Source: Myxococcales bacterium
GTDB lineage: Bacteria > Myxococcota_A > Polyangia > Fen-1088
Assembly (NCBI GenBank): GCA_025350815.1
Contig: JANXXE010000051.1
Span: 37 to 64,036 of the forward strand
Reading direction: 5' to 3'
DNA: 64,000 bases
The stretch's first letter is position 1. Each line of letters begins with the position of its first letter. Below the pieces are notes generated by a model. That model was given only the letters and a program-made list of their open reading frames with translations. It was not told the origin of the DNA and did not search any database. Shown one piece after another: positions 3,679-39,729 of this stretch. A program made the position numbers and the translations under genes.

Positions 3679-6051
3679 ATGGATGGGGCAGCCTGGATCC
3701 GCAGCGTCGAAGACTCGAACGCGCAGGCCGAAAAGCGCGCGCGCCTGGCCGAGCTTTCTGCGTTCATGAACCTGGCGCACAGCCTGGAAGATCTTCTGCC
3801 GACGGCGCAGGCCCGCATCACGGAGTTCTTCGGGGCCGAACGTTCGACGATGTACGCGATCGATCCCGCCACAGACCAGTTCTATTCGATTGCCAAGACC
3901 GGGGCCGACATCAAGGAAATCCGCGTCCCGCGCGACACCACCAGCATCACCGGCTTCGTGGGTGTTTCGAAAGCGCCGGTCAATCTTCGCAACGTCTATG
4001 ACGCAGCCGAGCTGACGCGCGTCAGTCCCAAGCTGCGCTTCGACGATCGCTGGGACAAGGTCTCGGGCTTCAAGACGCGTTCGATGATGACGGTGCCCAT
4101 CCTGCGCGACAAGACCCTTCTGGGCGTCATCCAGGTCATCAACCGTCGGGACGGGTTGCCGTTCATGCCGCGCGACGTGGCCAATGCCGAAGAAGTGGCG
4201 CGCATGCTGGGGGGCGCGATAGCGACGCTGAATGCGAGGGCGGCCGGACCGAAGGCCGCGTCCTTCCCCGCCGTTCCGGTGGTGGCGGTGCCCCCGGCGT
4301 CAACACCCGTGGCGGCGAAAACGCCTGCCCGCGCGGGCAAATGGGATCTGTTGGTCGAATCCGGGGTAATCCCGCCCGACGCCCTGGCCAGGGGGCTGGC
4401 CACGGCCGCCGCCAGCGCCCTCGATCCCGCGCGCTATCTCGTCGAAAAGATGGGCATTAACCGCGTCGACGTGGAAAAGGCCCTGTCGCAGTTTCACGGC
4501 TGCGAGTTCTTCCGCTTCACTGGCAAGGAAACAATTCCCGAGGAACTGCGCAGTCGACTGCGCGTCGACTTTCTGAAGAAGATTTGTGCCGCGCCCATCG
4601 AACGCCGGGGTGCGCAGTTGGTGGTGGTTATCGACGATCCCGCCGACATTGATCGGACGGATGCCCTGCGCTTGCTGGACAGCGATCGGTCGTTGCTGAT
4701 TCAGGTGGGCTTTCGCGACGAGATCCTGGCCTGCATCGAACATTCCTACGGTCTGCGCGGCGACGTCGGCCTGATTTTGAAGGAACTGTCCACCGACGAA
4801 GGCACGGGCGCCATCGAGGAAACCGTCGTCGATGACGAAGGGCGGGGCGGCGAATCGGACAGCGCAGTCATCAAGCTGGCCAATCAGGTCATCATCGACG
4901 CCTACCGACGGGGCGCGTCCGACATTCACATCGAGCCGAACGGCAAGGAAGAAAACACCACCATCAGATTCCGCATCGACGGCGAGTGCGTGGCCTACCA
5001 GGACATTCCCCCGGCCTACCGCAATCCCCTGGTCGCCCGTTTCAAGATCATGTCGAAGCTGGATATCTCCGAGCGGCGCAAACCTCAGGACGGGAAGATT
5101 CGCTTTCGCATGCAGGACCGCCAGATCGAACTGCGCGTTGCCACCTTGCCGACGGTGAACGGCAACGAGGACGTGGTGATGCGCATCCTGGCGGCATCGA
5201 AGCCGTTGCCGCTGGCCGAAATGGGCATGAGCGAACGCAATCTGCGTGGCCTCAAGGAGATCGTCGCCAAGCCCTATGGCCTGGTGCTGTGTGTGGGGCC
5301 CACGGGCTCAGGCAAGACGACGACGCTGCATTCGGCACTGGGGCACATCAACACCGTCGACATGAAGATCTGGACGGCCGAAGATCCCGTCGAGATTACG
5401 CAGCCTGGCCTGCGGCAGGTGCAGGTGCAGGCGAAGATCGGCTTCGATTTTGCGACGGCGATGCGCGCGTTTCTGCGCGCCGATCCCGACGTCATCATGG
5501 TCGGCGAAATGCGAGACAAGGAAACCGCCAGCACCGGTATCGAGGCGTCGTTGACCGGCCATCTGGTGCTGTCCACCCTGCACACCAACAGCGCGCCCGA
5601 GACCATCACGCGGCTTATCGACATGGATCTTGATCCCTTCAGTTTTGCCGATGCGTTGCTGGGCGTGCTGGCGCAGCGGCTGGCGCGCGGGATCTGCAAG
5701 AAGTGCCGGCAGGAATACGTCGCCGACAAGGACGAGGTCACGGCCATCATCGAGGCCTTCGGTCCCGAACAGGCCGAGGCGCGGGGTTACCGTCTGGGTG
5801 AGGTGAAGCTGTTCCGCGGTGCGGGCTGCGAGACCTGCGGCAAGTCCGGCTACAAGGGCCGCGTCGCCCTGCACGAATTGCTGCTGAACAACGACGAGAT
5901 CAAGCACGCCATCACGCACCGGGCGCCGGTCGAACAGATCCGGCAGTTGGCGATGAAAGGCGGCATGACCACGCTGTTGCAAGATGGCATCGAGAAGGCG
6001 ATGGCGGGGAAGACCGACCTCAAACAGGTATTGGCGGTGTGCTCGCGATGA
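3679..6051 (+). CDS. GAF domain + GspE/PilB N-terminal domain + type II/IV secretion-system ATPase (PilB/GspE/MshE family)
   Basis: 790 aa. N-terminal GAF-like region; central T2SSE_N-like region; C-terminal ATPase with Walker A GPTGSGKTT, Asp/His boxes and a tetracysteine motif (CKKC...CETC). Confidence 0.88.
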   Translation: MDGAAWIRSVEDSNAQAEKRARLAELSAFMNLAHSLEDLLPTAQARITEFFGAERSTMYAIDPATDQFYSIAKTGADIKEIRVPRDTTSITGFVGVSKAPVNLRNVYDAAELTRVSPKLRFDDRWDKVSGFKTRSMMTVPILRDKTLLGVIQVINRRDGLPFMPRDVANAEEVARMLGGAIATLNARAAGPKAASFPAVPVVAVPPASTPVAAKTPARAGKWDLLVESGVIPPDALARGLATAAASALDPARYLVEKMGINRVDVEKALSQFHGCEFFRFTGKETIPEELRSRLRVDFLKKICAAPIERRGAQLVVVIDDPADIDRTDALRLLDSDRSLLIQVGFRDEILACIEHSYGLRGDVGLILKELSTDEGTGAIEETVVDDEGRGGESDSAVIKLANQVIIDAYRRGASDIHIEPNGKEENTTIRFRIDGECVAYQDIPPAYRNPLVARFKIMSKLDISERRKPQDGKIRFRMQDRQIELRVATLPTVNGNEDVVMRILAASKPLPLAEMGMSERNLRGLKEIVAKPYGLVLCVGPTGSGKTTTLHSALGHINTVDMKIWTAEDPVEITQPGLRQVQVQAKIGFDFATAMRAFLRADPDVIMVGEMRDKETASTGIEASLTGHLVLSTLHTNSAPETITRLIDMDLDPFSFADALLGVLAQRLARGICKKCRQEYVADKDEVTAIIEAFGPEQAEARGYRLGEVKLFRGAGCETCGKSGYKGRVALHELLLNNDEIKHAITHRAPVEQIRQLAMKGGMTTLLQDGIEKAMAGKTDLKQVLAVCSR

Positions 6052-6086: not shown

Positions 6087-8867
6087 GTGCAGGGAATGGA
6101 AGATTTCCCCCGCCGATTCGGGCCGTATGTCCTGATGAAGCCCCTGGCGCACGGGGGCATGGGCGCCCTGTGTCTGGCCGTGCATGGCTCGCGCGGGATG
6201 GAGAAGTTGTGCGTCGTCAAGACGGCGCTGCCGCACCTGCACGGCAGCAGCTACCTGCAGCGCTTCCGCGATGAGGCCAAGATCGTCGTTCGCCTGTCGC
6301 ACGGCAACCTGGTCGCCGTCTTCGACGCGGGTCAAGTGGACGGCGAGATCTTTCTGGCCATGGATTTTGTTGAGGGCAAGGATCTGCGCGCGGTGTGGAA
6401 CCGATGTGCGCAAAAGGGCATTGCCTTTCCCGTCGACGTCGCCGTGCACATCGCAAAAGAATTGGCGCGCGGGCTGGCCTATGCGCATTCCTTCGAGGGG
6501 CTTTCGCTGGTGCACCGGGATGTGTCGCCGCCCAATGTGCTTCTGTCCTACACGGGTGAAACCAAGCTGACCGATTTCGGCCTGGCGTCATCGACCCTGA
6601 AGCTGGAAAAGACCGCGCCGGGGGTCATCTACGGCAAGGTCAGCTACATGGCGCCCGAGCAGGCGCGCGGCGATGCCCTGGACGCGCGTGCCGATCTGTA
6701 CGGCGCCGGAATCATCCTGTGGGAATTGCTGACCGGGCGGCAGTTGTTCCCGTCGGCGGCCTCGCGGGGCGGCCCGGCCAGGCCCGAAGGACCGCCAGTC
6801 GACGACGATTTGCTGGACCGGGTGCGCGAGCCACAGGTGGTGGCGCCATCCCAGCGCGCCGCCCGGGTGCCGGCCGAGCTCGATCGCATAGTCCTGCGGG
6901 CCCTGGCGACCGCGCCGGGTGATCGCTACCAGACCGGCGAAGAATTTCGTTCTGACCTCGCTGCCTTCCAGGCCAAGACGGCGCCCTCCACGGATGGTGA
7001 CCATGTCGCGCGCTTTCTGCGCGGGCTATTCGGCGACGTCATCGACAAAGAACGCGCCGAAAGAACAGCCCTAGTGGTGGCGTCCGCACCTCTGCTCGGC
7101 TCGTCGTTGCCGCGGCCGGCGGAACGTCCCGCAAACGTGCCGCCGCCGATGCCCGGGACCAGTGCGTCGTCTTCGTCGTCCTCGGAAATGTTGGGCCCCG
7201 GCGATTCTCGCGACAAGACCAAGGCCGAGGTGGTGCGCGACGAGCCATCGGAGATCGTGGGTAACGTTCTGGCCGGTCGATACAAGATCAAGCGGCTGTC
7301 CGGCGAGGGGGGCATGGGCCGTGTCTATGAGGCCGAACACATCGAGATCGGCAAGCGCGTTGCCGTCAAGGTTCTGCATCCCGCCTACTGCCGCATGCCC
7401 GAGGTCGTCGAACGCTTCAGGCGCGAGGCGCGGGCCGCCTCGAAGATTGGGCATCCCAACATCGTCAACGTGACCGACTCGGGCACGACCGACGACGGAT
7501 CGTTCTTCTTCGTGATGGAATACATCGAGGGCGTCGAGGTCGGCCTGGTCATCCACAGGGAGGGGCCTCTGCCCGTCATGCGCGCGTTGCACATCACGCA
7601 GCAGATGTGTTTGGCGCTGAAGGCGGCGCACGAGGCGGGCGTCATCCACCGCGACTTGAAGCCCGAGAACGTGCTGCTGGTCGCCGGCGAAAGTGAGAAG
7701 GACTTCGTCAAGGTGCTGGATTTCGGCATCGCCAAGAGCGCCGACGTCGAGGAGACGGCGAAGTCCGGGCGTCGTCTGACCCGTCCGGGGGTCGCGATGG
7801 GCACGCCGGAATACATGGCGCCCGAGCAAGCGGCGGGCAAACCGGCCGACCCGCGATCGGATATCTACGCGGTCGGTTCGATCCTGTACGAGATGCTGAC
7901 CAGCGTTCCCCCCTACGACGGGGACAACGTCATGGAGGTCTTGCACAAGAAGGCGAACGAAGCTCCGAGGCCCCTGCGCGAGTTGCGCCCCGACGTCCCG
8001 GAAGGTGTTGAGGAGTTGGTGATCCGCGCGATGGCCCGCTCGCCTGCGGATCGCCCGCAGTCGATGGCGGATCTGGCGCGCGACATTCAGGCCATGATGA
8101 CGACGCTTGACGATGGCCTTGGTCTGGTGCCGCCAGCGCCACCCCGCCGACAGACCGAGATCGTTGCTGCGCGCGTACCGCCCAGTTCCGGTCTAAGGGC
8201 GCTCGGGCTGTCGCGCCGAACCGTGGCCATCGCGGGTGCGCTGTTGATGAGCCTGGGCGTCGTGGTGATTATTCGTGGTGCCACCGCTTCCCGACCGGCG
8301 CCGCGGGTTGCGGGGGCGTCGAATGTCCCTGTCAAGCGGGCGGCGACGGCAGGTCCCAGGGCGGCCGCCCGCCCGGCCGCACCAATGGCTGTGACCGTGG
8401 TGCCCGCCCAGCCTAGCGAAGAGCCGGCCGCGGTGGAACCTGCGCCAGCGAGGCGGGTCGATTTGAAGGCGGGGCGGGGCAAGGCGTCAGCGGCGCGGGG
8501 GCTGTCGCCGGATGCCGCCAATCGATTGATCGCCACTGGCAACCAGCAACTGGCGCTTCGGCACTACGACGAGGCCGGCGCGACGTTCACGGGGCTTCTG
8601 GGCAGCAAGCGGGACCACGGCCGGGCGGCTCTGGGCCTGGCGCAGGTGGCGTTTCAACAAAAGCGTTACACCGAGATGGCCCGCCGGGCGAAGGAAGCGG
8701 TGGGGGCGGGCGAAGGCGTTCCGGCGCTGGTCTTGTTGGGCGACGCCCACTACAAGTTGAGGAACTACAAGGACGCCGTGAAGGTGTACGACGAGGCCCT
8801 GAGGCGCGCCCCGGGCAACGCGGGGGCCCAGAAGGGTTTGCAGGCGGCCAGGCGCGGCCTCGACTGA
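6087..8867 (+). CDS. tandem (two-kinase-domain) Ser/Thr protein kinase with TM segment and C-terminal TPR region
   Basis: 926 aa. Domain 1 has [15 protein letters not shown] (catalytic-loop Lys replaced), DFG and APE. Domain 2 is canonical ([14 protein letters not shown]). A hydrophobic segment [16 protein letters not shown] and TPR-like repeats lie at the C-terminus. Confidence 0.9.
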
Positions 8868-8931: not shown

Positions 8932-11733
8932 ATGACCGGACGCTACCCTCGACGTTTCGGCAAGTACGTCCTCCTCAAGCCGTTGGCGAAGGGGGGAATG
9001 GGTGAGATCTACCTGGCGGCAGGGGGCGAGATCGGCGGCTTCGAAAAGCTGTGCGTGATCAAGAAGGTCCTCACCGAGAAGGCCGACAAGACCAAGGCCA
9101 ACCGTTTCCTCGATGAAGCCAAGGTGGTGCTGCGGCTGTCCCACTCGGCGCTGGTGACCACCTTCGACGCCGGCGAGGTCGACGGCGAGTTCTACATCGC
9201 CATGGAGCTGGTCGAGGGCAAGGATCTGCGCGAGGTGTGGAACCGCTGCGTGCGGACCCGGCAGCGTATCCCCCTGGATGTGGCATTGCATGTGGTGCGC
9301 GAGGTGGCGCGGGCGCTGGCCTACGTACACGCCTACGGCGATCTGAAACTGGTGCACCGGGATGTGGCGCCGCCGAACATCTTGCTGGCCTATGTCGGCG
9401 ACGTAAAGCTGACCGATTTTGGTTTGGCCCGCAGCGTTCTCAAGCAGGAACATACCGCCCCTGGCGTCGTGTTCGGCCGGGCGGCGTATCTTGCGCCCGA
9501 ACAGGCCCGCGGCGAGGTGGCTGACGCGCGCACGGACGTTTACACCCTCGGCATCGTGCTGTGGGAGCTGCTGACCGGACAGCAGTTCTTGCAGCTATCG
9601 GGACTGGATCCGGCGGCGGCCCTGGCCATTGTGCGGCACCCGAAGATTGCCCCGCCGTCCTCGCGCGCGCCGTGGATTTCCCCCGCGCTGGATCAGGTGG
9701 TGATGCGCGCACTGACGCCCGATCGCGACGCCCGCTACTCGTCCGCCGAGGAAATGCGGCAGGGATTGGCCGACGTGATGTCGGACATAGCGCCGCGCGG
9801 GGATTCGGCGCGCGTGGCGGAATTCTTGCGCGGGATTTATAGCGAAACCATCGAGGAAGAACGCGCCGAGCGCGACCATTATCTGAAGGACGAGATCCCC
9901 AAGTTTCGCGCCGCTCTGGTGGCCCCGGAACGCACATCATTGGTTGGTGCGGAGGCTGCGCTGGCGGCAATCTCCGACGAGGATTCGGCCCCCTCGGCGC
10001 CCGGTGCGGCCGGACAGCCGATCACCATCAGTGGTCCGGTCGGATCCCCCCCGGCACTCCCAGTCGCCAGTCCAGCGTCGGCGCCCCGCCCCCGAGTCGG
10101 ACGTTCCTGGACCTCGCCTCGCTTGCCCGGCTTGCCGCCGTCGATCGTCCAGCCGCGCGACGGGATCTCCCACGCTGACCCTTCCGCCGCATCGGCGCCC
10201 CCGGCAACGTCGGTGCCCGCAGGCCCCTCCCCTCGATTGTCGTTTGGCGGCACGCCCGCGCGGCCGGTCGCGGCCGCAACCAATGTTCGTCTGACGCCCC
10301 GGGCGGGGGCGCCCGTCGTCGCGGCACGTACGTCGCTGGACGCTGAACGATCGCCGGTCGTCCCGGCGCCCGTCGTCGAGGAATCGCCCCCTGCCGAGGC
10401 GCGCATCATCGCGGGCCGCTATCGGGTGGTCGGCACGCTGGGCGAGGGGAGTCTCGGGATCGTGTACGCCGTCAAGCAGTCCGACGGCGGCCAGGATCTG
10501 TCCTTGCGTGTGATGGCCCGCAGCCGTTCATTCGACGGGCCGCTGGCGGATCGCTGGCGCCGTGAGGTGCGCGCGGTTTCGTCACTCGGACATCCGCACT
10601 CGGTCCTGGTGCACGACCTTGGGATCACCGAAGACGGCGCCTCGTACGTCGCGATGGATCCTTTGTCGGGCATGGACCTGGCGACCTATGTCGCGCGCGA
10701 GCAGCGTCTCGATCCCGTGCTGGCCCTCAAGATCGTGACGCCGCTGTGCCAGGTGCTGGGGGCGGCGCACGCCGCCGGGGTGGCCCACGGGGCCCTGCGG
10801 CCCGAAAGTATCTTCCTCGCGCCGCGGGGCAAATCCGTCGACGCGGTCAAGCTGATCGATTTCGGGCTCGCGGCTGCGCTGACCAAGGATCTGGTGCCCC
10901 GGCGACTGACGCCGGAGTCATTGCCGGCCAATGTCGTCGAGTACCTCGCGCCCGAACAGCTGGCCGGCCAGGCCCCTGATGTGCTGTCGGATGTCTTCGG
11001 CGTCGGTGTGATCTTGTACGAAATGCTGACGGGCGCGCCGCCACACGCGGGCTCCGGCGATCTGGTCGGGCGGCGCAGCCAGGAGGCGCCGCAGTCGCCG
11101 CGCATGTTTCGCCCCGACATTTCCGAGCCCCTTGAACGTCTCACGCTGGCGATGCTCGACCGCGACCGGACCCGTCGTCCACGTTCGATGGCCGACGTCG
11201 AGACCGCGCTGGTCGGCCTGGCGGTGCCGGGGGTCCGGCCAGCGACTGGGGCGGACCCCGCCGGCTCCGATCTCGTGGTCGGCGCTGAAGAGCGCAGCCA
11301 GCGCCGGGTGACCCGCGACGCGGCCTTTCGCGCCATCGCCGATTTGTCCGCCGAGCCTCCGGCCGCGTTGCCCGCCCTGCTGGCACCGAGGACGGCGCCT
11401 GAAGTGGTGTTCGGTGTCCCCGTCGACGAGACGGCCACGACCGACCCCGAAATCCCCACGCTGCCGGCGTCTGCCTTGCGGCCGTCGGCTGCCCAAACCT
11501 CGTCGAGTTCGATCCCGGCCCGGATACCCGGGGGCGGCATGCTCGCGCGCTACGGCGCTGGGTCTGCAAGAAAACAGACCTCGCCCATCTCCGGCGCCGT
11601 GGTCCAGGTGGGGGGCGGCCTGGCCGTCGTCGGTCTGCTGCTGTTGCTGCTGCTGACCGATACATTCTCCTGCCGCGATCGCTCGGCCGCTTCGAAACCA
11701 TCAGCCAAGACCGCGACGACCAAGAAGCCGTGA
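8932..11733 (+). CDS. tandem-kinase-domain Ser/Thr protein kinase paralog; second domain is a predicted pseudokinase
   Basis: 933 aa. Domain 1 aligns by eye with domain 1 of the upstream kinase (HRDVAPPN, DFG, APE). Domain 2 has HGALRPES in place of HRD and retains DFG. Long Pro/Ala/Ser linker, then a C-terminal poly-Leu TM segment. Confidence 0.9.
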   Translation: MTGRYPRRFGKYVLLKPLAKGGMGEIYLAAGGEIGGFEKLCVIKKVLTEKADKTKANRFLDEAKVVLRLSHSALVTTFDAGEVDGEFYIAMELVEGKDLREVWNRCVRTRQRIPLDVALHVVREVARALAYVHAYGDLKLVHRDVAPPNILLAYVGDVKLTDFGLARSVLKQEHTAPGVVFGRAAYLAPEQARGEVADARTDVYTLGIVLWELLTGQQFLQLSGLDPAAALAIVRHPKIAPPSSRAPWISPALDQVVMRALTPDRDARYSSAEEMRQGLADVMSDIAPRGDSARVAEFLRGIYSETIEEERAERDHYLKDEIPKFRAALVAPERTSLVGAEAALAAISDEDSAPSAPGAAGQPITISGPVGSPPALPVASPASAPRPRVGRSWTSPRLPGLPPSIVQPRDGISHADPSAASAPPATSVPAGPSPRLSFGGTPARPVAAATNVRLTPRAGAPVVAARTSLDAERSPVVPAPVVEESPPAEARIIAGRYRVVGTLGEGSLGIVYAVKQSDGGQDLSLRVMARSRSFDGPLADRWRREVRAVSSLGHPHSVLVHDLGITEDGASYVAMDPLSGMDLATYVAREQRLDPVLALKIVTPLCQVLGAAHAAGVAHGALRPESIFLAPRGKSVDAVKLIDFGLAAALTKDLVPRRLTPESLPANVVEYLAPEQLAGQAPDVLSDVFGVGVILYEMLTGAPPHAGSGDLVGRRSQEAPQSPRMFRPDISEPLERLTLAMLDRDRTRRPRSMADVETALVGLAVPGVRPATGADPAGSDLVVGAEERSQRRVTRDAAFRAIADLSAEPPAALPALLAPRTAPEVVFGVPVDETATTDPEIPTLPASALRPSAAQTSSSSIPARIPGGGMLARYGAGSARKQTSPISGAVVQVGGGLAVVGLLLLLLLTDTFSCRDRSAASKPSAKTATTKKP

Positions 11734-11736
11734 GGG

Positions 11737-12354
11737 TTAGCGCATGAGACGCTGGCCGAGCAACATCATGACTTGCATGGCCAGGGTCCGGTCGCCCTCG
11801 ATCCGGATTCGGCCTTGCAACAGCGCTTGCAAGGGGGGCATGCGGCCGGTCGTAACCCCCTCGTAGGTGGTGCCGTCGACGCGGACGATCGCACGCGGCC
11901 GACCCGCGGTGGCGCCAGTGCGACCGAACGCGACGTCCAGGCCCCAGCGACGGCGGCGCTTCCCTTCCACCTCGACCGCGAAGCGCCCATCCACCTGCCG
12001 CAGCATCGCGAGATCGCGCGGATCCAGGAACAGCAGATCCAGGGCGGACCACCCCGGCGGCATCAGGTCAGGCAGATCGGGATCGCGGTCAAAGGCGGCC
12101 TGAAAATCGGCGACCGATTGTCGCAGCCACACGTCCGGGCGGGGCGCGCTTCGTATCGCTGCCAGGGACAGGGCTTCGACGTCCAGACGGTCATCCACCG
12201 GGCACACGTCCCAATGTCCGCCGCCGGTTCCCGACAGCGACGTCCGCACCAGTGGCGCGCCATCGGGCGCGAGGGTGCCGGCGGCGGCATAAACCCCGGG
12301 CAGCCACGTCAGGAAGAAGTCCCCGGCCGCGAGGCCTGGCGGCGGCCTGTCCAC
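11737..12354 (-). CDS. SCP2 sterol-binding-domain-like protein
   Basis: 205 aa. C-terminal GRIRIEGDRTLAMQVMMLLGQ resembles the SCP2 C-terminal helix. Lies downstream of rnr on the same strand. Confidence 0.45.
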   Translation of the reverse strand: MDRPPPGLAAGDFFLTWLPGVYAAAGTLAPDGAPLVRTSLSGTGGGHWDVCPVDDRLDVEALSLAAIRSAPRPDVWLRQSVADFQAAFDRDPDLPDLMPPGWSALDLLFLDPRDLAMLRQVDGRFAVEVEGKRRRRWGLDVAFGRTGATAGRPRAIVRVDGTTYEGVTTGRMPPLQALLQGRIRIEGDRTLAMQVMMLLGQRLMR

Positions 12355-12377
12355 GTCGTTCCTGCGTCCTTGCCTGC

Positions 12378-14573
12378 CTAGCGTTTCCGCGTCTTGCGGC
12401 CCGGGCGGGGGTTCCGGCCCGGACCGCCGCCGCCCTTGGGCTTCTTGTCGGCGCGTCCCCGGTGGTGCGCGGACGGACGGCTTGGGCTATCGGGCATGGC
12501 GCCGCGACGGCCGTGGGTCTTGCGCTGATCCTCCCGCTGAGGCCGCTGGGGTGCCACCTGCGCCTTGTGCGTTTGCAACTTGAAGTCGATCTTGCGTCTG
12601 GTCACGCTGACCGACAGGACCTCGACGGTGACCTCATCGCCCAGCGAAAAGGTCTTGCCCGAGCGTCCGCCAACCAGGCGGCACGTGGTCTCGTCGAACT
12701 GAAAGTAGTCGCGGCCCAGATCCTCGACCCTGACCAGACCTTCGATGAACGGTTCGGGGACCGACACGAACATGCCGAAGCTGGCGATGCTGGAGATCGT
12801 CCCGGGGAAGACGTCGCCGATGCGATCGCGCATGAAGAAGGCGCGGTACAGATCCATCACCTCGCGTTCCACTTCCATCGCTTTTCGTTCGGCGAACGAC
12901 GCGTCGGCGGCCATCTTCTGCAGGGCCCCCTGATCCGGCATCGCCGGCGTGGCGCTCATCCGCGGGAACCCCCCGGCCGGCTTGCCCTGCTCGGCCAGGC
13001 GTCGCTTGAGCAAACGGTGCACGATGAGATCCGGGTAGCGTCGGATGGGCGACGTGAAATGCAGATACGCCGTCGCCGCCAGTCCGAAGTGACCCAGGTT
13101 GACGACGTCATACGTCGCCTGCTTGAGCGATCGCAGCAGCTGAAACGACAGCGCCTTGACCGCGGCATGCTCGGCCAGTTGTTCGAGCACGCGCGCCAGG
13201 CCCTTGGGTGACCGCGCTTCCTCGATGTCCACCCGGATGCCGTAGGACTCGGCCAGATTGGCGAACATTTCCAGCTTGGCCTCGTCGGGCACGTCGTGAA
13301 TGCGCCACAGGGTGTCTTCGCCCCGTTGCTTGAAGCTGTCACCCACGGCCTCGTTCGCCGCCAGCATGAATTCCTCGATCATCGAATACGCCTGGCGTTC
13401 GCCCGGATCACGTCGCGACCGTCGAATGTCACGCACCAATTGCGGGTTGTCGTCGTCCAGTTCGACCACCGGTTCGGGCAGATCCAGATCCAGGGCACCG
13501 CGCTGCTGCCGGCGCACGCGCAGGCGCGCGGACAGGGACGTCATCGCGCGCAGGGCGGGCAGGTGCGGCTCGTACTTCTTGCGCTTGCCGCGGGTGTCAC
13601 CCGCAAGGGCCGCTGCCACGCCCGGGTAGTCCAGCCGCGCGCGCGAATGAATCACCGCCGCACAAAAATCCGTGTCGACGACATTCAGGTTTCGATCGAG
13701 ATCAATGCGCACCACCATGGCCAGGCGGTCCTGCTCGGGCACCAGCGAGCACATATGACCGGACAGCGCCTCCGGCAGCATGGGGATGGCGCGGTTGGGT
13801 AGGTACACGCTGCAGCCGCGCTTCTGCGCCTCGTCGTCGATGGGCGAGCCTTCACGCACATAATGAGAGACGTCCGCGACAGCCACCCACAGGCGGTTGA
13901 TGCCACCCGGCAGCTCTTCCAGCGCGACGGCGTCGTCGAAGTCACGCGCCGTTTCGGGGTCGATGGTGGTGAAAGGAACATGACGAAGATCCGCCCGGTC
14001 CTGCCGATCCGCGTCCTGCACTTCTTGGGGGACGTGTGCGGCGATGCGCGCCACGGGTTCGGGGAATTCCTCGGTGATGTCGGCGATGGCGAGAATCTTC
14101 TCGATCTCGGTGCGGGGATCGTCCGGGTCGCCCAGCACCTTGAGGATGGTGACCTCCATCGGCGACTCGGCGCTGTCCGGGTAGCGGACGATTTCGGCCA
14201 CCACCGCCTGGCCCGTTTTTGCGCTGCCGGGGCCGCCGCGCAGGATGACGGCACCCGCGATGCGCGAGTCATCCGGTTCGAGGTGCAGGCCCTTGCCCGT
14301 GCCGACGATCTGGCCGGTGATCTTGCCGCGGCCACGCTCGACAATGCGGGCGACGCGCCCTTCGAGCCCGCGCGGTCCCACCCACCATTCGACCTCGACG
14401 CGGTCGGCGTCCATGGCCGCCCCGCGCGCCTGCGCGGAAATGTGAATGTCTTCGGATTTGTCGTCGGGCACCACGAAGCCATAGCCCCGTGGGTTGACCT
14501 TGATTCGTCCGGTCAAAATTCGTTTCGGTTGATTGCGATAAGGTTGGTCTTCGTTTTGATTCATTCTGGTCAT
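12378..14573 (-). CDS. rnr: ribonuclease R
   Basis: 731 aa. Cold-shock domain, RNB catalytic domain (YLHFTSPIRRYPDLIVHRLLK), S1 domain and a Lys/Arg/Gly-rich C-terminal tail. Its start overlaps the upstream gene's stop by one base. Confidence 0.93.
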   Translation of the reverse strand: MTRMNQNEDQPYRNQPKRILTGRIKVNPRGYGFVVPDDKSEDIHISAQARGAAMDADRVEVEWWVGPRGLEGRVARIVERGRGKITGQIVGTGKGLHLEPDDSRIAGAVILRGGPGSAKTGQAVVAEIVRYPDSAESPMEVTILKVLGDPDDPRTEIEKILAIADITEEFPEPVARIAAHVPQEVQDADRQDRADLRHVPFTTIDPETARDFDDAVALEELPGGINRLWVAVADVSHYVREGSPIDDEAQKRGCSVYLPNRAIPMLPEALSGHMCSLVPEQDRLAMVVRIDLDRNLNVVDTDFCAAVIHSRARLDYPGVAAALAGDTRGKRKKYEPHLPALRAMTSLSARLRVRRQQRGALDLDLPEPVVELDDDNPQLVRDIRRSRRDPGERQAYSMIEEFMLAANEAVGDSFKQRGEDTLWRIHDVPDEAKLEMFANLAESYGIRVDIEEARSPKGLARVLEQLAEHAAVKALSFQLLRSLKQATYDVVNLGHFGLAATAYLHFTSPIRRYPDLIVHRLLKRRLAEQGKPAGGFPRMSATPAMPDQGALQKMAADASFAERKAMEVEREVMDLYRAFFMRDRIGDVFPGTISSIASFGMFVSVPEPFIEGLVRVEDLGRDYFQFDETTCRLVGGRSGKTFSLGDEVTVEVLSVSVTRRKIDFKLQTHKAQVAPQRPQREDQRKTHGRRGAMPDSPSRPSAHHRGRADKKPKGGGGPGRNPRPGRKTRKR

Positions 14574-31360: not shown

Positions 31361-31894
31361 TTGACGTCCATGCCTCTTGAGTTCTCTGCCCAATCGAAGC
31401 TGCAAATCGAGCGTCTTCGCAGCCGCTATCCCACGAACCAGGCCGCACTGTTGCCAGTGCTGCATCTGGCGCAGGACGAGTTTGGTTCACTACCCGACGA
31501 GGCGCTGGATCTGGTCGCGAAGACGCTGGAGCTTCCTGCCGCGCACGTTTTCGGCGTGGTCACCTTCTACACGATGTTTCACCGCGAGCCGCACGGCGCG
31601 AACGAGCTGATGGTGTGCACGAACGTGTCGTGCATGCTGCGCGGCGGATACGACATTTTGCATCACATCGAAAAGACGCTGGGCGTGAAGGCGGGTGAGA
31701 CCACCGCCGATGGCGCTTTCTCGCTGGTCGAAGAAGAGTGCCTCGCGGCCTGCGCGAACGCGCCCATGATGATCTGCGGCAACGAATATTTTCTCGACCT
31801 GACGCCCGACAAAGTCGACCGGGCGCTCGACGAGCTGCGGAAGCGGTATGACGAGCGCAAGCGCGTGGCAGCACCGGCCGGACGCAAGACCTAG
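31361..31894 (+). CDS. nuoE: NADH-quinone oxidoreductase subunit E (2Fe-2S)
   Basis: 177 aa. Cys ligands in CTNVSCMLRGG and EECLAACANAPMMICG. Confidence 0.9.
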   Translation: MTSMPLEFSAQSKLQIERLRSRYPTNQAALLPVLHLAQDEFGSLPDEALDLVAKTLELPAAHVFGVVTFYTMFHREPHGANELMVCTNVSCMLRGGYDILHHIEKTLGVKAGETTADGAFSLVEEECLAACANAPMMICGNEYFLDLTPDKVDRALDELRKRYDERKRVAAPAGRKT

Positions 31895-31901
31895 GAAATA
31901 C

Positions 31902-33239
31902 ATGGGCTGGCAGGACGCAAAGGGCACCAAGATAGTCACGCGAAACTTCGGCGTGGCGAATTCGCACAAGCTGGCCGTGTACACCTCGGGCGGCGGCTGG
32001 GAGGGCTTCAAGAAGGCCATCACGGCGGCCCCGCCCGCGCTGCTGGACGAGGTCAAGAAGTCGAATCTGCGCGGACGCGGGGGCGCCGGTTTCTCGACGG
32101 GGATGAAGTGGTCCTTCATTCCCAAGGAGGCCAAGCGCGTTTACCTGGTCTGCAACGCTGACGAGTCCGAGCCGGGCACCTGCAAGGATCGGGAGCTTCT
32201 GGCCTACGACCCGCACATGCTGATCGAGGGTATGACAATCGCGTCGTACACCGTCGGCTGCAAGCACGCGTACATCTACATCCGTGGCGAGATGATGCGC
32301 GAAGCGAAGATCGTTCAGGCTGCGATCGACGAGGCCTACGAGGCCGGCTGGCTGGGACGTGAGCACGCCACGGCGAATGGGCCCTTCAAGCTGGATATCA
32401 CCCTGCATCGGGGGGCCGGCGCGTACATCTGCGGCGAAGAAACGGCCTTGCTGAATTCGCTGGAAGGGCAGCGCGGGTGGCCGAGGCTGAAGCCGCCGTT
32501 CCCGGCGGTCAAGGGTCTGTTCAAGGAAGCGACCATCGTCAACAATGTCGAGACCTTGATGAACGTTCCCGACATCGTTCTCAAGGGCGGCGACTGGTTC
32601 GCCAAGCTTGGCACCGCAAAGTCTGGTGGCACGCGCATCGTCTGCGTGTCGGGCCACGTGAAGAAGCCCGGGGTTTACGAGCTTCCGATGGGGATCCCCT
32701 TCCGCGATCTCATCTATGACGTTTGCGGCGGCATCGTCGGTGACCGCCCCCTCAAGGGGCTGATTCCGGGTGGCAGCTCTATGCCGCCACTGGATGCCAG
32801 CGAGATCGACGTGCCGATCGAATTCGATGCCCTAATGACCGACCCACGCATCAAGGATGTCGAGGCCAAGCCCGGCGTGCCCTTCGATCTTGGTGGCGGC
32901 CGGCGCCTCAAGACAATGGCCGGTTCGGGCGGCGTGGTCGTGTTCGACGACAGCACGGATGTGGTCGCTTTGTGCGCGCGGATCATGCGGTTTTATGCCC
33001 ACGAATCCTGTGGGCAGTGCACGCCCTGTCGCGAAGGCACGGGCTGGTTGGCGCGGGTCTGCACACGCCTGGCGGCGGGGGACGGGCGTCCTGGCGATGT
33101 GGACCTGCTGGCCCACGTGGCGGTGGGGATCGCCGGCAACACCATCTGTGCGCTGGGCGAGGCGGCGGCCTGGCCGATGCTGGGTTTCCTGACCAAGTTT
33201 CGTGGCGACTTCGAACAGAGACTGCGGAAGGTGGCCTAG
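31902..33239 (+). CDS. nuoF: NADH-quinone oxidoreductase subunit F
   Basis: Start moved to an ATG preceded by AGGAAA, 8 nt after the nuoE stop. FMN/NADH and 4Fe-4S motifs (GRGGAGF, ESCGQCTPCREG). Confidence 0.9.
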   Translation: MGWQDAKGTKIVTRNFGVANSHKLAVYTSGGGWEGFKKAITAAPPALLDEVKKSNLRGRGGAGFSTGMKWSFIPKEAKRVYLVCNADESEPGTCKDRELLAYDPHMLIEGMTIASYTVGCKHAYIYIRGEMMREAKIVQAAIDEAYEAGWLGREHATANGPFKLDITLHRGAGAYICGEETALLNSLEGQRGWPRLKPPFPAVKGLFKEATIVNNVETLMNVPDIVLKGGDWFAKLGTAKSGGTRIVCVSGHVKKPGVYELPMGIPFRDLIYDVCGGIVGDRPLKGLIPGGSSMPPLDASEIDVPIEFDALMTDPRIKDVEAKPGVPFDLGGGRRLKTMAGSGGVVVFDDSTDVVALCARIMRFYAHESCGQCTPCREGTGWLARVCTRLAAGDGRPGDVDLLAHVAVGIAGNTICALGEAAAWPMLGFLTKFRGDFEQRLRKVA

Positions 33240-33400
33240 TGCCTCACGTCAGAAGTTCGGGCAGTGCTGGCAAGCCGATCCGACGCTCCGGCTGCGTTGC
33301 TTCTCGTTACCGTACCTACGGGTACGCCTTCTCGTCGCGCCTTGCCGGACCGCCGGCTTGGCTTCCGATCACTGCCCGATCTTCTGACGTGAGGCACTAG
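33236..33400. repeat. 31-bp inverted repeat (1 mismatch) flanking a 103-bp spacer, exactly filling the nuoF-nuoJ intergenic region
   Basis: Arm 1 at 33236-33266 is CTAGTGCCTCACGTCAGAAGTTCGGGCAGTG. Arm 2 at 33370-33400 is its reverse complement apart from one base. A nested short palindrome CCGTACCTACGGGTACG lies in the spacer. Confidence 0.8.
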
Positions 33401-33402
33401 CC

Positions 33403-34065
33403 GTGCACCAATTGCATACGCAGACGGTGGGACTGCCGGCGACAATCACCTTCGCGATTCTCGCCGGGCTGACTGTTATCGGGGCGCTGTTCACCATCAC
33501 GCGTCGGAATCCCGTCGTCGCCGTGATCTCGCTGGTTGGGACGTTTTTCGCGCTGGCCGGCGTCTACGCGTCGTTGTCGGCCCACTTTCTCGCCATCCTG
33601 CAGATCCTGGTCTACGCGGGCGCCATCATGGTGCTTTTCATCTTCGTCGTGATGATTCTCAACCGGGACGAGATCACGCGCGTCGCGGCCCGGGGCATGG
33701 TGCGGCGGGGTCTGGGCGTGGTCGCCGCTGGGTATGTCGTGTGGCTACTGGCGTCGGTGGTCGCGAATTCCAGCGCGACGCCGCTTCTGGGCGGTCCCCT
33801 GTCGGAGCCGGGAGCCGATTTCGGCACGGTGGCGTCGGTGGGCGCATCGCTGTTCACGGACTTCATGTTCCCCTTCGAGGCCGTCTCGTTGCTGTTGCTG
33901 GTGGCCGTTGTCGGCGGTCTGGTGGTCTCGCGCTCTGAGAAACAGGAAGACGACGCCGAAGAAACCGCGCGTCGCCGCGCCCAGGTCGCGACCGAGATTC
34001 GTCCCGAGTCAATGGTCGGGGGACCGACCGATGCCACGGCCAACCACGAGGCCGCCCACCACTAA
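33403..34065 (+). CDS. nuoJ: NADH-quinone oxidoreductase subunit J
   Basis: 220 aa, GTG start. Polytopic membrane protein with the NuoJ pattern (ILQILVYAGAIMVLFIFVVM). Confidence 0.82.
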   Translation: MHQLHTQTVGLPATITFAILAGLTVIGALFTITRRNPVVAVISLVGTFFALAGVYASLSAHFLAILQILVYAGAIMVLFIFVVMILNRDEITRVAARGMVRRGLGVVAAGYVVWLLASVVANSSATPLLGGPLSEPGADFGTVASVGASLFTDFMFPFEAVSLLLLVAVVGGLVVSRSEKQEDDAEETARRRAQVATEIRPESMVGGPTDATANHEAAHH

Positions 34066-34364
34066 TGCCAACCCTCTACTATCTGTACCTGTCCTTTGCG
34101 CTGTTCTTCATTGGGACGGCGGGTGTGCTTTTGCGCCGCAACGCGCTTATCGTTTTGATGGCGATCGAGTTGCAGTTGAACGCGGGCAACCTCGCCTTGC
34201 TCGCGTTTTCGCGCTCGCTCGGCGATCTCAAGGGGCACGTCTTTGCGTTCTTCGTGATTGCGCTGGCCGCTGCCGAGGCGGCCGTTGGTCTGGCCATCCT
34301 GGTCGGCATGTACCGAACCCGCCAGACGATCAATCTGGACGAAGTCGCCACGATGAAGCGTTGA
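34065..34364 (+). CDS. nuoK: NADH-quinone oxidoreductase subunit K
   Basis: 99 aa (MPTLYYLYLSFALFFIGTAGVLLRRNALIVLMAIELQLNAGNLALLAF). Confidence 0.9.
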   Translation: MPTLYYLYLSFALFFIGTAGVLLRRNALIVLMAIELQLNAGNLALLAFSRSLGDLKGHVFAFFVIALAAAEAAVGLAILVGMYRTRQTINLDEVATMKR

Positions 34365-34385
34365 TGAAGCGTTAGGGATCCACAC

Positions 34386-36602
34386 ATGTCTTTCAGCCTC
34401 CGTCTCATCCCCCTTCTGCCCTTCGCCGGCGCGACCGTGTTGCTGCTGTTCGGACGGGCCTTCAGCCGTCAATGGGTCCACCTGATTGCCTGCTTGGCGA
34501 TCGGCACGGCCTTCCTGGTGTCCGCTGACGCCTTCTTCACGGCGTTGCCGGCGGCGCATGAATCGGGTGGTCTGCACGACATCGTGTGGGCCTGGTTCGC
34601 AAGCGGCGACCTCAAGGTCGACCTCGCGTTTCGCATGGATGCCCTGTCCGGCGTGATGTGTCTCATCATCACGTTCATCGGGACGCTGATTCACATCTAT
34701 TCGGCAGGCTACATGAGCCACGAGAAAGATTACGCCCGCTTCTTCGCGTATCTGAACCTGTTCTGCGGCGCGATGTTGATCCTGGTCCTCGGCGATTCCC
34801 TGCCGGTGATGTTCGTCGGCTGGGAGGGCGTGGGTCTGTGCAGCTACCTGCTGATCGGCTTCTGGTACGGGCAGACAGCGAACGCCAACGCCGGCAAGAA
34901 GGCCTTCATCACCAACCGCATCGGCGACTTCGGCTTCCTGCTGGGGATGTTTCTGCTGTTTTCGGCCACGAACACCCTGGATATGCCGGGCATCAATGCT
35001 GCGGCGAAGGCCGGGGCGGCGGGCCTGACCGAGATTTCGTGGATGGGGCAGCCGGTCGCTTTTTGGGCCGCGCTGTTCTTGTTTGTGGGTGCGGCGGGCA
35101 AGTCGGCGCAGATTCCCCTTTACGTCTGGCTGCCGGACGCAATGGCGGGTCCCACCCCAGTTTCGGCCTTGATCCACGCTGCCACGATGGTGACGGCGGG
35201 TGTGTACATGGTCGCCCGCCTCGGGGCGCTTTACTTGTTGTCGCCGGCCGCGATGGCGATTGTGGCGCTGGTTGGCGCCGCGACGGCCATCTTCGCCGCC
35301 ATCATCGGGTTCGCGCAGAACGACTTCAAGAAGGTGCTGGCCTATTCAACCGTCAGCCAGTTGGGCTTCATGTTTGCCGGCGTCGGCACCGGCGCGTTCG
35401 GCAGCGGCGTGTTCCACCTGTATACGCACGCCTTCTTCAAGGCCGGGTTGTTTCTGTGTGCCGGCTCGGTCATGCACGCGATGAGCGGCTCAGGCGACAT
35501 CACGAAGATGGGTGGTCTCGGTCGCAAGATTCCCTGGACGCACCGGGTGTTCTTCGTTTGCTGGTTGGCCATCTGCGGCGTGCCGATCTTCTCGGGGTTC
35601 TTTTCCAAGGACGCCATCGTCGCGGGCGCGTTTGCGACGCACGTCTTCGGCGAATCGCTGTCCTGGGTCGGTCCCGTCGTGGGTACGGTGCTGCTGCTGG
35701 CCGCACTGTGCACGTCGTTCTACATGTCGCGCCTGTACTTTCTGGTTTTCAGCGGCGAATGCCGCGCCGACCACGAGACACAGCACCACATTCACGAGTC
35801 GCCGATCGAGATGGTCGGACCCCTGGTGGTTCTGGCCGTCGGTGCGGGCCTGGGTGGTCTCATCGGATTTCCCGGGGGGCTGTTTGGCCACGAGGAATGG
35901 AATCTGCTCGGTCACTGGCTTGAGCCCGTCGTGGGCCCCGAGTTGCATATACCGCACGCAGTGGAAGTGACCGTAATGGCGGCCTCGACCGCGGTCGCGT
36001 TCGTCGGAATATTCTTGGCGCGCGCGTTTTTCGGCGGCGGCTACCGCGAGCCGGCCCATCAGTTTGCGCGGTCGATGCCGGGCTTTGTGGCCCTGGTGCG
36101 GGACAAGTTTCGCGTCGACGAACTGTACAATTTCTTCATCGTTCGCCCTCTGCGATTCGTGAGCCGGGGATTGTTCGTCATCGTCGATCGCATCGTCATC
36201 GACAAGGCGATGGTGGAAGTGCCGGCAGCGATTGTCGGCGTTTTCGGCCGCGCGGCGCGCTGGTTTCAAGCCGGCGATGCCCAGCGCTACCTGGCAACAT
36301 TCGCCATCGGCGTGGCGGCGATCTTTTATCTGGCCACACGCCCGCCTGCCCCCGACGCATTCAAGGTGACCATCCAGGGCACCGCCGTCGACGTGGACGC
36401 CCGGGGCGTCGCTGGAACCGCGGGCCGCACCCTGCTTTACGATTTCGACTTCGAGGCTGATGGCACCGTGGATCGCAAGGGCTCAAGTCCCACCGCCCAT
36501 TTCGTGTATGAGGGCACCGGAACGTACGTCATCCGGGTCACCATCAAGGATCCGCGCTGGGGTACATCCACCAGGCTCGAGCAGAAGGTGAGAATTCAGT
36601 AG
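34386..36602 (+). CDS. nuoL: NADH-quinone oxidoreductase subunit L with C-terminal PKD-like domain fusion
   Basis: 738 aa. NuoL antiporter-like core to about aa 640, then AFKVTIQGTAVDVD...LLYDFDFEADGTVDRKGSSPTAHFVYEGTGTYVIRVTIKDPRWG, which matches the PKD hallmark (YDFDFGDG...HxYxxxGTYTVTLTV). Confidence 0.88.
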   Translation: MSFSLRLIPLLPFAGATVLLLFGRAFSRQWVHLIACLAIGTAFLVSADAFFTALPAAHESGGLHDIVWAWFASGDLKVDLAFRMDALSGVMCLIITFIGTLIHIYSAGYMSHEKDYARFFAYLNLFCGAMLILVLGDSLPVMFVGWEGVGLCSYLLIGFWYGQTANANAGKKAFITNRIGDFGFLLGMFLLFSATNTLDMPGINAAAKAGAAGLTEISWMGQPVAFWAALFLFVGAAGKSAQIPLYVWLPDAMAGPTPVSALIHAATMVTAGVYMVARLGALYLLSPAAMAIVALVGAATAIFAAIIGFAQNDFKKVLAYSTVSQLGFMFAGVGTGAFGSGVFHLYTHAFFKAGLFLCAGSVMHAMSGSGDITKMGGLGRKIPWTHRVFFVCWLAICGVPIFSGFFSKDAIVAGAFATHVFGESLSWVGPVVGTVLLLAALCTSFYMSRLYFLVFSGECRADHETQHHIHESPIEMVGPLVVLAVGAGLGGLIGFPGGLFGHEEWNLLGHWLEPVVGPELHIPHAVEVTVMAASTAVAFVGIFLARAFFGGGYREPAHQFARSMPGFVALVRDKFRVDELYNFFIVRPLRFVSRGLFVIVDRIVIDKAMVEVPAAIVGVFGRAARWFQAGDAQRYLATFAIGVAAIFYLATRPPAPDAFKVTIQGTAVDVDARGVAGTAGRTLLYDFDFEADGTVDRKGSSPTAHFVYEGTGTYVIRVTIKDPRWGTSTRLEQKVRIQ

Positions 36603-36604
36603 TC

Positions 36605-38235
<1,631 letters not shown>

Positions 38236-38239
<4 letters not shown>

Positions 38240-39729
38240 GCTTCGATCTGTCACAACTGTCGGCGATCGTTCCTCTGATCATCGTGACGGGGATGGGTTG
38301 CCTGATCTTGCTGGCCGAAACCTTCGCCCGCAACCGGGCGCGGACGGGCCTCGCGTCGTTGGCCCTTGGCGGCTGCGTGTTCGCGTTCGTTGCAGTCGCC
38401 GCGCAGTGGGACGCGGCCGCGACCAAGACGACGGTTCTGCAAGGCATGTGGGTCATGGATCGCATGGCCCTGTTCCTTGACGCGACCTTTGTCGCAACAG
38501 CCGCTATCACCGTGCTGATTTCGGGGCCGTTCATGCGCGAGCACGGCTTCGAATTCGGCGAGTTTTACGGCATCGTCCTGTTTGCGACCGGCGGCATGAT
38601 GATGGTGTCGCACGCCGACCACCTGCTGATGCTGTTGATCGGTATCGAGACGACTTCGCTGGCCGCCTACGTCCTGACCGGCTGCTGGCGCCGCAACGCG
38701 CGCAGCTCCGAAGGGGCGATGAAGTATTTCCTGATGGGTGCGTTCGCGACCGGCTTTCTGGTTTACGGGATGGCGCTTATCTACGGCACGACCGGTGGCG
38801 AGATGACCTACGCGGGCATCGCCGCCAAGGCCGCCGTATCGTCGAACAGCTCGCTGTTTGTCGCTGGCGTTTATTTCGTCCTGATTGCACTCATCTTCAA
38901 GGTCGCCGCTGTGCCCTTTCATATGTGGGCCCCGGATACCTACGAGGGCGCGCCCACCCCGGCAACGGGCTTCATGGCAGCCGGAGTCAAGGCCGCGGCG
39001 TTCGGCGCCATTTTGCGCCTGTTCGGTACGGTTTTCGGCGGCCCCGGCTTGCCGGGCGAGCCCATCGGATGGGTGCGCATCCTGGCGACCGTGGCCATTT
39101 TGACAATGACGTTTGGCAACCTGGCGGCGCTGCGCCAGGAAAACATCAAACGCATGCTCGCCTATTCCTCCATCGCCCACGCAGGTTACCTGCTGGTGGG
39201 TGTGGTGGCGGTCGGCGTGGGGATCGCTGGCGCGCAGTCGGCCGTCTTGTTTTACCTGGTGACCTACACCTTCACGACCCTCGGCGTCTTCGGCGTCATC
39301 GCGTGGGTCGGCAAACGCGGTGACGAACGCCTGTTCGTCGACGACTGGGCGGGCCTTGGCACCGCGCGCCCGGCGCTGGCCCTGGCGATGACCATCTTTC
39401 TTCTATCGCTGGGTGGCGTGCCGCCGACCGGTGGCTTCTTCGGAAAATTCTATCTGTTCCGGGCCGCGATGCAGAGCCCTGAGCTGTACCCGCTGGTCAT
39501 CGCGGGCGTCCTCAACAGCGTCGTCAGCGTCTACTACTACCTGCGTGTGGTGGTGGCGATGTACTTCCGCGATGCCACGCGACCGCTCGACTCGTATCCC
39601 TCGGCGTCGATGCGGGCGGCGCTGGTGCTCACGGCGATTGCCGTCGTTGTGCTGGGTCTGTTCCCGGGGGCGGTGGTGGACTGGGCTGGCGGCGCGGGGG
39701 CGGCCGTGGCCAAGGTCGCCGGTCTCTGA
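38236..39729 (+). CDS. nuoN: NADH-quinone oxidoreductase subunit N
   Basis: GTG start overlapping the nuoM stop (GTGA). The protein begins VSFDLSQLSAIVPLIIV and has antiporter-like membrane repeats. Confidence 0.85.

Follow-up and report, generated by a model that had tools for sequence, protein, structure and literature searches.

Correia elements of Neisseria (also designated CREE or NEMIS) duplicate a TA target dinucleotide, and the RUP elements of Streptococcus pneumoniae are linked to the insertion sequence (IS) IS630-Spn1. Here, we report on a 159-nt palindromic element that is located between the nuoF and nuoJ genes of a Myxococcales bacterium (GenBank assembly GCA_025350815.1, contig JANXXE010000051.1) and that is very probably one copy of a MITE (miniature inverted-repeat transposable element), i.e., a non-autonomous transposable element. 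Together with a duplicated TA, this core occupies positions 33237 to 33399 of the window, the whole 64-kb stretch of DNA (64,000 nucleotides) that was analyzed. MITEs are usually smaller than 200 bp (some reach ~400 bp), lack a transposase gene, are bordered by terminal inverted repeats, form a stable single-strand stem-loop, and occur in several copies at different loci, with a target duplication revealed by comparison of filled and empty orthologous sites (PMC3184786). The element has the size, the absence of a transposase gene, the terminal inverted repeats, the target duplication with an empty site, and the stable fold of this class.

The element resembles the Correia elements, which are ~100 to 160 bp in size, have terminal inverted repeats, and are intergenic, often directly beside genes. 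Correia transcripts contain a long stem, and RNase III can cut them at the repeats (PMC10969869). Differences from this family include the lack of sequence similarity, the absence of a promoter-like site in the window copy, a GC-rich Myxococcota-like host rather than Neisseria, and a full-length stem with covariation. RUP and other IS630-linked MITEs also combine terminal repeats with target duplications (PMC3184786), but the sequence of RUP is unrelated and a partner IS was not found for the present element. As described in PMC3184786, the RNA fold of the Chunjie MITE of Geobacter uraniireducens is similarly very stable (about -98 to -130 kcal/mol), but Chunjie is 178 to 235 bp long, is A+T-rich, and has repeats of 21 bp as well as direct repeats of 9 bp, whereas the present element comprises 159 nt, is G+C-rich, and is associated with a TA duplication. 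REPINs share with it a long imperfect hairpin, pairing that is kept among copies, and an intergenic location (PMC3116915), but the REPIN/RAYT system involves no duplication of the target and includes a RAYT gene that the repeats flank. No sequence match was found in the libraries searched, and the element family appears to be new.

Evidence for insertion came from comparison of the window with the contigs of seven NuoJ homologues displaying 54 to 74% identity (L006, L007, L008, L010, L011, L016, and L017). In all seven relatives, nuoF abuts nuoJ, the two genes overlapping by 4 nt (ATGA) or being separated by 1, 2, 2, 12, 16, or 22 nt. The element is absent from the seven junctions, the comparison of which had been proposed in an earlier note on this DNA, and an nhmmer profile of the copies had no match in the five contigs that extend far enough (L006, L007, L008, L010, and L011). 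The L008 site, GGTGGCCTAGCCGTGCA, is the exact counterpart of the window without the element. This contig reads AAGGTGGCCTAGCCGTGCAG, i.e., GGTGGCC-TA-GCCGTGCA, versus GGTGGCC-TA-[159-nt element]-TA-GCCGTGCA in the window. Split into codons, L008 reads ...AAG GTG GCC TAG CC GTG CAG and the window reads ...AAG GTG GCC TA[G TGCC...GGCA C]TA G CC GTG CAC. The flanks are identical, and TA, inside CTAG, is doubled in the window. Judged by sequence comparison, the two loci form a textbook filled/empty pair. In the ancestor, nuoF already abutted nuoJ (...GCC TAG CC GTG...), and the element would have entered the TA of the ancestral CTAG, thereby doubling TA. Since the ancestral gap was only 2 nt, the insert makes up nearly the whole nuoF-nuoJ intergenic region. 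A relative of another copy-bearing locus (L015, related to L004) also lacks the element and has CTAA common to two convergent stop codons, in a spacer that has diverged (~20 nt); this comparison is consistent with an empty site, although an inexact one.

Copies of the element were identified at unrelated loci. Scanning of metagenomes with a 21-base arm pattern identified three contigs, two of which contain complete copies (L003, positions 718 to 876; L004, positions 5120 to 5279), whereas the third (L005) contains the final 33 nt of the element at the contig end. Translation of the element afforded two open frames. When 1.84 billion representative proteins were searched with one of these frames, the match was P0121, the last 54 residues of which correspond to a gene call running into a fifth copy (contig L009, positions 772 to 930); the protein search with the second frame was without match. 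Thus, the two frames matched no protein family, only this gene call running into another copy. The element is therefore present at five distinct loci across metagenomes (the window, L003, L004, L005, and L009), with one copy per contig. The four complete cores (all but that of L005) are 159 to 160 nt in length and 82 to 93% identical, and homology between the window copy and those of L003, L004, and L009 ends exactly at GTGCC and GGCAC. The gene contexts differ: the copy of L003 is bordered by an ABC ATPase gene on one side and an ABC-2 permease gene on the other, that of L004 lies downstream of a hypothetical gene convergent with a Ser/Thr kinase gene, that of L005 adjoins an OmpA-family gene, and that of L009 adjoins a truncated HD_4 gene. 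These unrelated locations, together with the sharp ends, the TA flanks, and the exact empty site in L008, bear out the MITE-like element that the earlier note had offered as one of its options.

An assembly artifact was ruled out, since the L004 insertion is identical base for base in three independent assemblies (JGI, ENA/NCBI, and Logan) and the junction of the window with arm 2 of the repeat is also present in independent Logan contigs; the locus is contained in Logan run SRR23617167. Three contigs assembled from short reads of different data sets terminate within the element (L001, positions 1 to 30; L005, positions 1 to 33; L014, positions 1899 to 2043), consistent with the breaking of assembly graphs at repeated or palindromic sequences. 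In L009, the P0121 open reading frame (ORF) (positions 391 to 933) begins with an HD_4 (RelA/SpoT-type) N terminus, loses similarity after ~90 residues, and continues through the element to the TAG of the element. This gene is either a truncated gene or the product of a chimeric contig and exemplifies a spurious protein tail generated by the element.

The flanks of the copies define the target. The copies of the window, L004, and L009 (three of the four complete copies) have TA on either side, and TA also adjoins the one end that the L005 contig covers. When 4 nt are considered, CTAG borders the window and L004 copies left and right, the flanks of L009 are CTAG and CTAA, and those of L003 are GCCG and CTAG. 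Because the outer bases differ in L009 and because L003 keeps the G without the CTA, the sequences of these copies favor a 2-nt duplication. Such targets are scarce in this genome context: for a G+C content of 65.5%, the window contains 804 TA versus 1890 expected and 21 CTAG versus 203 expected, an approximately 10-fold depletion, and several of the 21 CTAG are stop codons of long ORFs. The upstream ORF of the L004 locus (positions 4230 to 5120) likewise ends in the flanking TAG. Because CTAG is depleted and concentrated at stop codons, an element requiring TA or CTAG would often strike TAG or TAA stops, which would account for the exact fit of the insert between the nuoF stop and the nuoJ start. 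The nuoE gene of the window also ends in CTAG (positions 31891 to 31894).

The 31-bp near-perfect inverted repeat reported in the earlier note is real, and the symmetry is longer than had been stated. Arm 1 (positions 33236 to 33266) and arm 2 (positions 33370 to 33400) are reverse complements except at arm position 21, where T is opposed to A. As had been claimed, 2 nt separate the end of arm 2 from the nuoJ GTG; arm 1 does contain the nuoF stop codon but begins 1 nt before it rather than within it. A 28-nt arm pattern occurred at only two places in the 64-kb window, versus 0.00 expected from shuffled sequences. A repeat search revealed that complementarity extends inward to arms of 57 nt (positions 33236 to 33292 and 33344 to 33400; 86% complementary) enclosing the central hairpin CGTACC-TACG-GGTACG. 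Positions 33236 to 33400 thus form a single 165-nt stem-loop. Folding, which the earlier note had called for, confirmed a stable stem-loop both as RNA (-111.8 kcal/mol versus -64.5 +/- 3.9 for shuffled sequences; z = -12.1, 0 of 200 shuffles) and as DNA (-59 kcal/mol; z = -10.5). The terminal repeats of the window copy align over 28 nt with one mismatch, and over the outermost 16 nt, pairing is perfect in the copies of the window and L004, complete in L009, and interrupted by one mismatch in L003.

The hairpin is conserved among copies. In the four-copy alignment, the consensus hairpin contains 57 pairs, and 98.2% of the cells are standard pairs. Changes on both sides were detected for 10 of the 57 pairs, versus 0 to 3 pairs if partners were slid by 1 to 3 columns, and the covariation score of 0.228 was reached by none of 500 shuffles (0.095 +/- 0.024). 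For four related sequences, these data are suggestive, but the stem is clearly kept inward of the terminal repeats as well. Folding energies of the four copies range from -102 to -129 kcal/mol, and in each copy the same strand of the element gives the more stable fold (by 2.6 to 17 kcal/mol), independently of the direction of the neighboring genes. This strand bias could reflect a transposition requirement, arm-to-arm correction, or selection on the transcript.

We propose that the element was mobilized in trans, most plausibly, in our guess, by an IS630/Tc1-mariner-type DDE transposase, i.e., an enzyme targeting TA and often preferring CTAG. Members of this group insert into TA and duplicate it (PMC2170065), and the same article cites Tenzen and Ohtsubo (1991) for the preference for CTAG. 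The partner IS would have ends starting with GTGCCTCACGTCAGAAG and would encode an IS630-type DDE transposase. Several observations weigh against the MITE interpretation as a whole. The 39 large ORFs scanned in the window encode no transposase, and no transposase with matching ends was found; a partner IS was likewise absent from these ORFs and from plasmid and phage records. High copy number within a genome was not observed: the arm pattern and the nhmmer profile both detected only one copy in the 64-kb window, and a genome carrying several copies was not found. The arm pattern had no match in 185,579 species genomes with 25 specified bases, a pattern that was too specific, or with 20, a pattern that covered all arm variants. 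Two patterns searched in viral contigs and a blastn search of the element against plasmids and phages also gave no match. The L003 copy lacks the left TA. CTAG being a palindrome, a duplication of 2 nt, one of 4 nt, and an insertion 3' of CTAG without any duplication are equally compatible with the only exact empty site. DDE transposition does not call for covariation along the whole stem, and this feature hints that more is involved. Finally, the consequences for gene expression considered below, translational coupling and RNase III processing, are folding predictions. The nhmmer profile searched against the window and most of the fetched loci revealed no extra or degenerate copies.

An alternative that we consider unlikely is a REPIN-like hairpin moved as single-stranded DNA by a tyrosine transposase (Y1, of the RAYT or IS200/IS605 type), which would insert beside a CTAG-like tetranucleotide without true target duplication. 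REP sequences carry a conserved GTAG-type head, and none was evident in the element. Maintenance of the whole 57-pair hairpin by compensatory changes is reminiscent of that reported for REPINs (PMC3116915), a constant better-folding strand in four of four copies would suit a strand-specific single-stranded intermediate, and, CTAG being palindromic, the sole exact empty site does not discriminate between duplication and insertion 3' of CTAG. However, the element has genuine terminal inverted repeats at its two ends (16 to 20 nt without mismatch), as in DDE-type elements. TA borders both sides of three of the four complete copies and is doubled at the exact empty/filled pair, and the CTAG/CTAA flanks of L009 are better accounted for by a 2-nt duplication. 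In addition, the scanned ORFs, all of which lie in the window, encode neither RAYT nor Y1 transposases.

It appears still less probable that the element is a MITE derived from an IS5-family element duplicating a 4-nt CTAG or YTAA target, in which case the element proper would be TGCC...GGCA. Such a duplication of CTAG or YTAA is documented for MITEPsy1 of Pseudomonas syringae (PMC3189936), and the window and L004 copies each have CTAG on the left and on the right, but the flanks are not identical in L009, and retention of the G without the CTA in L003 assigns this base to the element rather than to the target.

We give almost no weight to the possibility that the hairpin is an RNA element native to the nuo operon (processing site, attenuator, or stabilizer) or to that of a recombination scar left by removal of nuoG, nuoH, and nuoI, both of which the earlier note had envisaged: a very stable stem-loop is indeed located exactly between the two cistrons and the three genes are missing, but seven relatives have the same gene adjacency and flanking synteny without such a structure, the same sequence is present in unrelated gene contexts, the stem is not followed by a U-tract or a terminator call at its 3' end, and no Rfam family was identified (best E = 0.43, far below the gathering score). 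The Rfam 15 search covered the window and gave no match at gathering thresholds, the best permissive hit being P33 with 16.2 bits versus a threshold of 45, i.e., at chance level. The absence of nuoG, nuoH, and nuoI between nuoF and nuoJ noticed in the earlier note was confirmed by Pfam searches, which did not detect these genes there or among the scanned ORFs. Since the seven relatives display the nuoF-nuoJ adjacency without the element, sequence comparison indicates that this absence dates back to the ancestor of the clade and has no connection with the repeat, and that the insertion is a later, lineage-specific event.

Under the MITE interpretation, the insertion left both proteins unaltered. 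Because the first base of the element is G, the left junction TA+G re-creates the TAG stop codon of nuoF, and the NuoF C terminus (...RKVA*) is the same as in L008. The GTG of nuoJ has the same position relative to CTAGCC as in L008. In ancestral-type junctions, GGTGG is located 7 nt before the start codon (L008 and L016). In the window, this motif has been displaced by the element to ~160 nt upstream and is replaced by GAGG from the right repeat (positions 33391 to 33394), which lies 8 nt before the nuoJ GTG because the terminal repeat ends in GAGGCAC. At the L003 locus, the end of the element reads GGGAGG-cactag-ATG, directly before the permease start. The terminal-repeat variant GACGGGAGGCAC, which replaces GACGTGAGGCAC in L003 (positions 868 to 876) and in both arms of L009, converts GTGAGG into GGGAGG, a stronger Shine-Dalgarno match; the change is compensated on both arms in L009 but affects one arm only in L003, where it directly precedes the permease ATG.

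In phage MS2, the coat and replicase genes are translationally coupled, since the upstream ribosome melts a stem that sequesters the downstream ribosome-binding site. The nuoF-nuoJ junction resembles this arrangement, as the downstream Shine-Dalgarno motif pairs just past the upstream stop codon and is predicted to be exposed by the terminating ribosome, but here the arrangement would be a by-product of the inverted repeats of a transposon. The 57-pair stem would hide GAGG in the nuo mRNA, and a ribosome terminating at the nuoF stop would occupy the opposite arm and melt the base of the stem. In fold predictions, the probability of GAGG being unpaired was 0.000 in the free RNA and 0.37 if positions -15 to +13 around the nuoF stop were held open. 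Because GAGG is paired in the free RNA and predicted to be more accessible if the stop codon is covered by a ribosome, translation of nuoJ is predicted to depend on termination at nuoF; coupling of nuoJ to nuoF translation was thus probably maintained or tightened. By analogy with Correia transcripts, the 57-pair duplex is a plausible substrate of RNase III. The element may thus still act secondarily on the nuo transcript. Two other roles were rejected. An intrinsic terminator is ruled out by the missing U-tract and the lack of a call at the 3' end of the stem, which is followed by CCGUGCACC, the only site called being a weak 6-pair site inside the element. A promoter carrier is ruled out since the scan found no promoter-like site in or near the element.

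The coordinates of the features of the junction are collected in Table 1.

Table 1. Genes and parts of the element at the nuoF-nuoJ junction (positions in the window)
Feature	Start	End	Strand	Comment
nuoF	31848	33239	+	Complex1_51K, SLBB, and NADH_4Fe-4S (Pfam); TAG stop at 33237-33239
Left copy of duplicated target TA	33237	33238		Identified by comparison with the L008 empty site
Element core (159 nt, GTGCC...GGCAC)	33239	33397	-	Strand is the orientation aligning with the L003 and L004 copies; 57-pair hairpin; no coding capacity
Left terminal inverted repeat	33239	33266	+	CCTC at 33242-33245, 3 to 6 nt past the nuoF stop, pairs with GAGG of the right repeat
Central hairpin CCGTACC-TACG-GGTACG-C (tip of the element)	33309	33326	+	Kept in all copies (alignment columns 71-78 pair with 83-90); one compensatory change, G-C to A-U, in L009
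Right terminal inverted repeat	33370	33397	+	Holds the Shine-Dalgarno-like GAGG
Right copy of duplicated target TA	33398	33399		Identified by comparison with the L008 empty site
nuoJ	33403	34065	+	Oxidored_q3 (Pfam); GTG start; independent gene call on Logan contig L001

Pfam searches support the assignment of nuoE (positions 31361 to 31894), nuoF, and nuoJ, followed by nuoK, nuoL, nuoM, and nuoN. The longest nuoF ORF (463 residues, ATG at 31848) shares the last 47 nt of nuoE, whereas NuoF of the relatives comprises 445 to 447 residues and starts just after to ~70 nt after nuoE. Because of the size of NuoF in the relatives, the true start of nuoF is probably located ~16 codons downstream of 31848, just after 31894. 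The full nuoE-F-J-K-L-M-N order was observed in the four long contigs of relatives (L006, L007, L010, and L011), and the cluster (positions 31361 to 39729) and its flanks are conserved in at least five Polyangia-like assemblies. The downstream flank contains Dus in the window and in the four long contigs. These contigs also match the upstream, opposite-strand flank of the window, with T2SSE ATPase and/or GMC oxidoreductase genes: divergent genes for a GMC oxidoreductase and a gluconate-2-DH subunit are present in the window and in three of the four, whereas only the T2SSE gene is present in L010. Since nuoA to nuoD and nuoG to nuoI were found neither within 10 kb nor among the large ORFs of the window, these genes must be located elsewhere or be absent. 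NuoL of the window (positions 34386 to 36602) contains a C-terminal PKD domain (residues 666 to 733; PF00801, E = 3e-5, just above the curated cutoff), and a weak PKD match was also detected in the NuoL homologue of L010 (positions 11007 to 13220). Fusion of an Ig-like domain to the antiporter-like subunit L of complex I is unusual.

The named relatives of NuoJ, which are distant, and those of the gene flanking the L004 copy originate from metagenome-assembled genomes designated "Polyangia bacterium." The window also encodes many Ser/Thr kinases and sigma-54 activators, in keeping with a Polyangia-type host. Two adjacent large Ser/Thr kinase genes (positions 6087 to 8867 and 8932 to 11733) each match Pkinase twice, and C-terminal TPR repeats are present in one of the two. 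This arrangement is typical of myxobacteria. The element family therefore probably resides in uncultured soil bacteria of the Polyangia type (Myxococcota).

An extension of the MITE interpretation, which we regard as improbable, is that the family is adapted to gene junctions, i.e., that it is a MITE specialized for operons, providing a portable stop/start junction in which the stem loops the insert out and coupling survives. In such a scheme, TA followed by the first base G would restore any TAG or TAA stop codon as TAG, GAGGCAC-TA would provide a closely following start codon with a suitably spaced Shine-Dalgarno motif, and the full-length stem would keep the stop and start codons side by side in the mRNA. 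If this were true, selection on RNA structure would explain the covariation.

As ordinary selfish DNA, the element leaves current understanding unchallenged. Its presence says nothing on how or when the nuo operon lost nuoG, nuoH, and nuoI at the nuoF-nuoJ junction, and a false lead is thereby removed. In practical terms, the element breaks short-read assemblies (L001, L005, and L014) and causes spurious gene calls (P0121). The window provides an exact empty/filled pair for an apparently undescribed MITE family from poorly studied, uncultured Polyangia-like soil bacteria. It also offers a clean natural case of a transposon that entered a respiratory complex I gene cluster, at a gap of 2 nt between stop and start codons, and left both proteins unaltered, a case that is usable for the study of translational coupling and RNase III processing.

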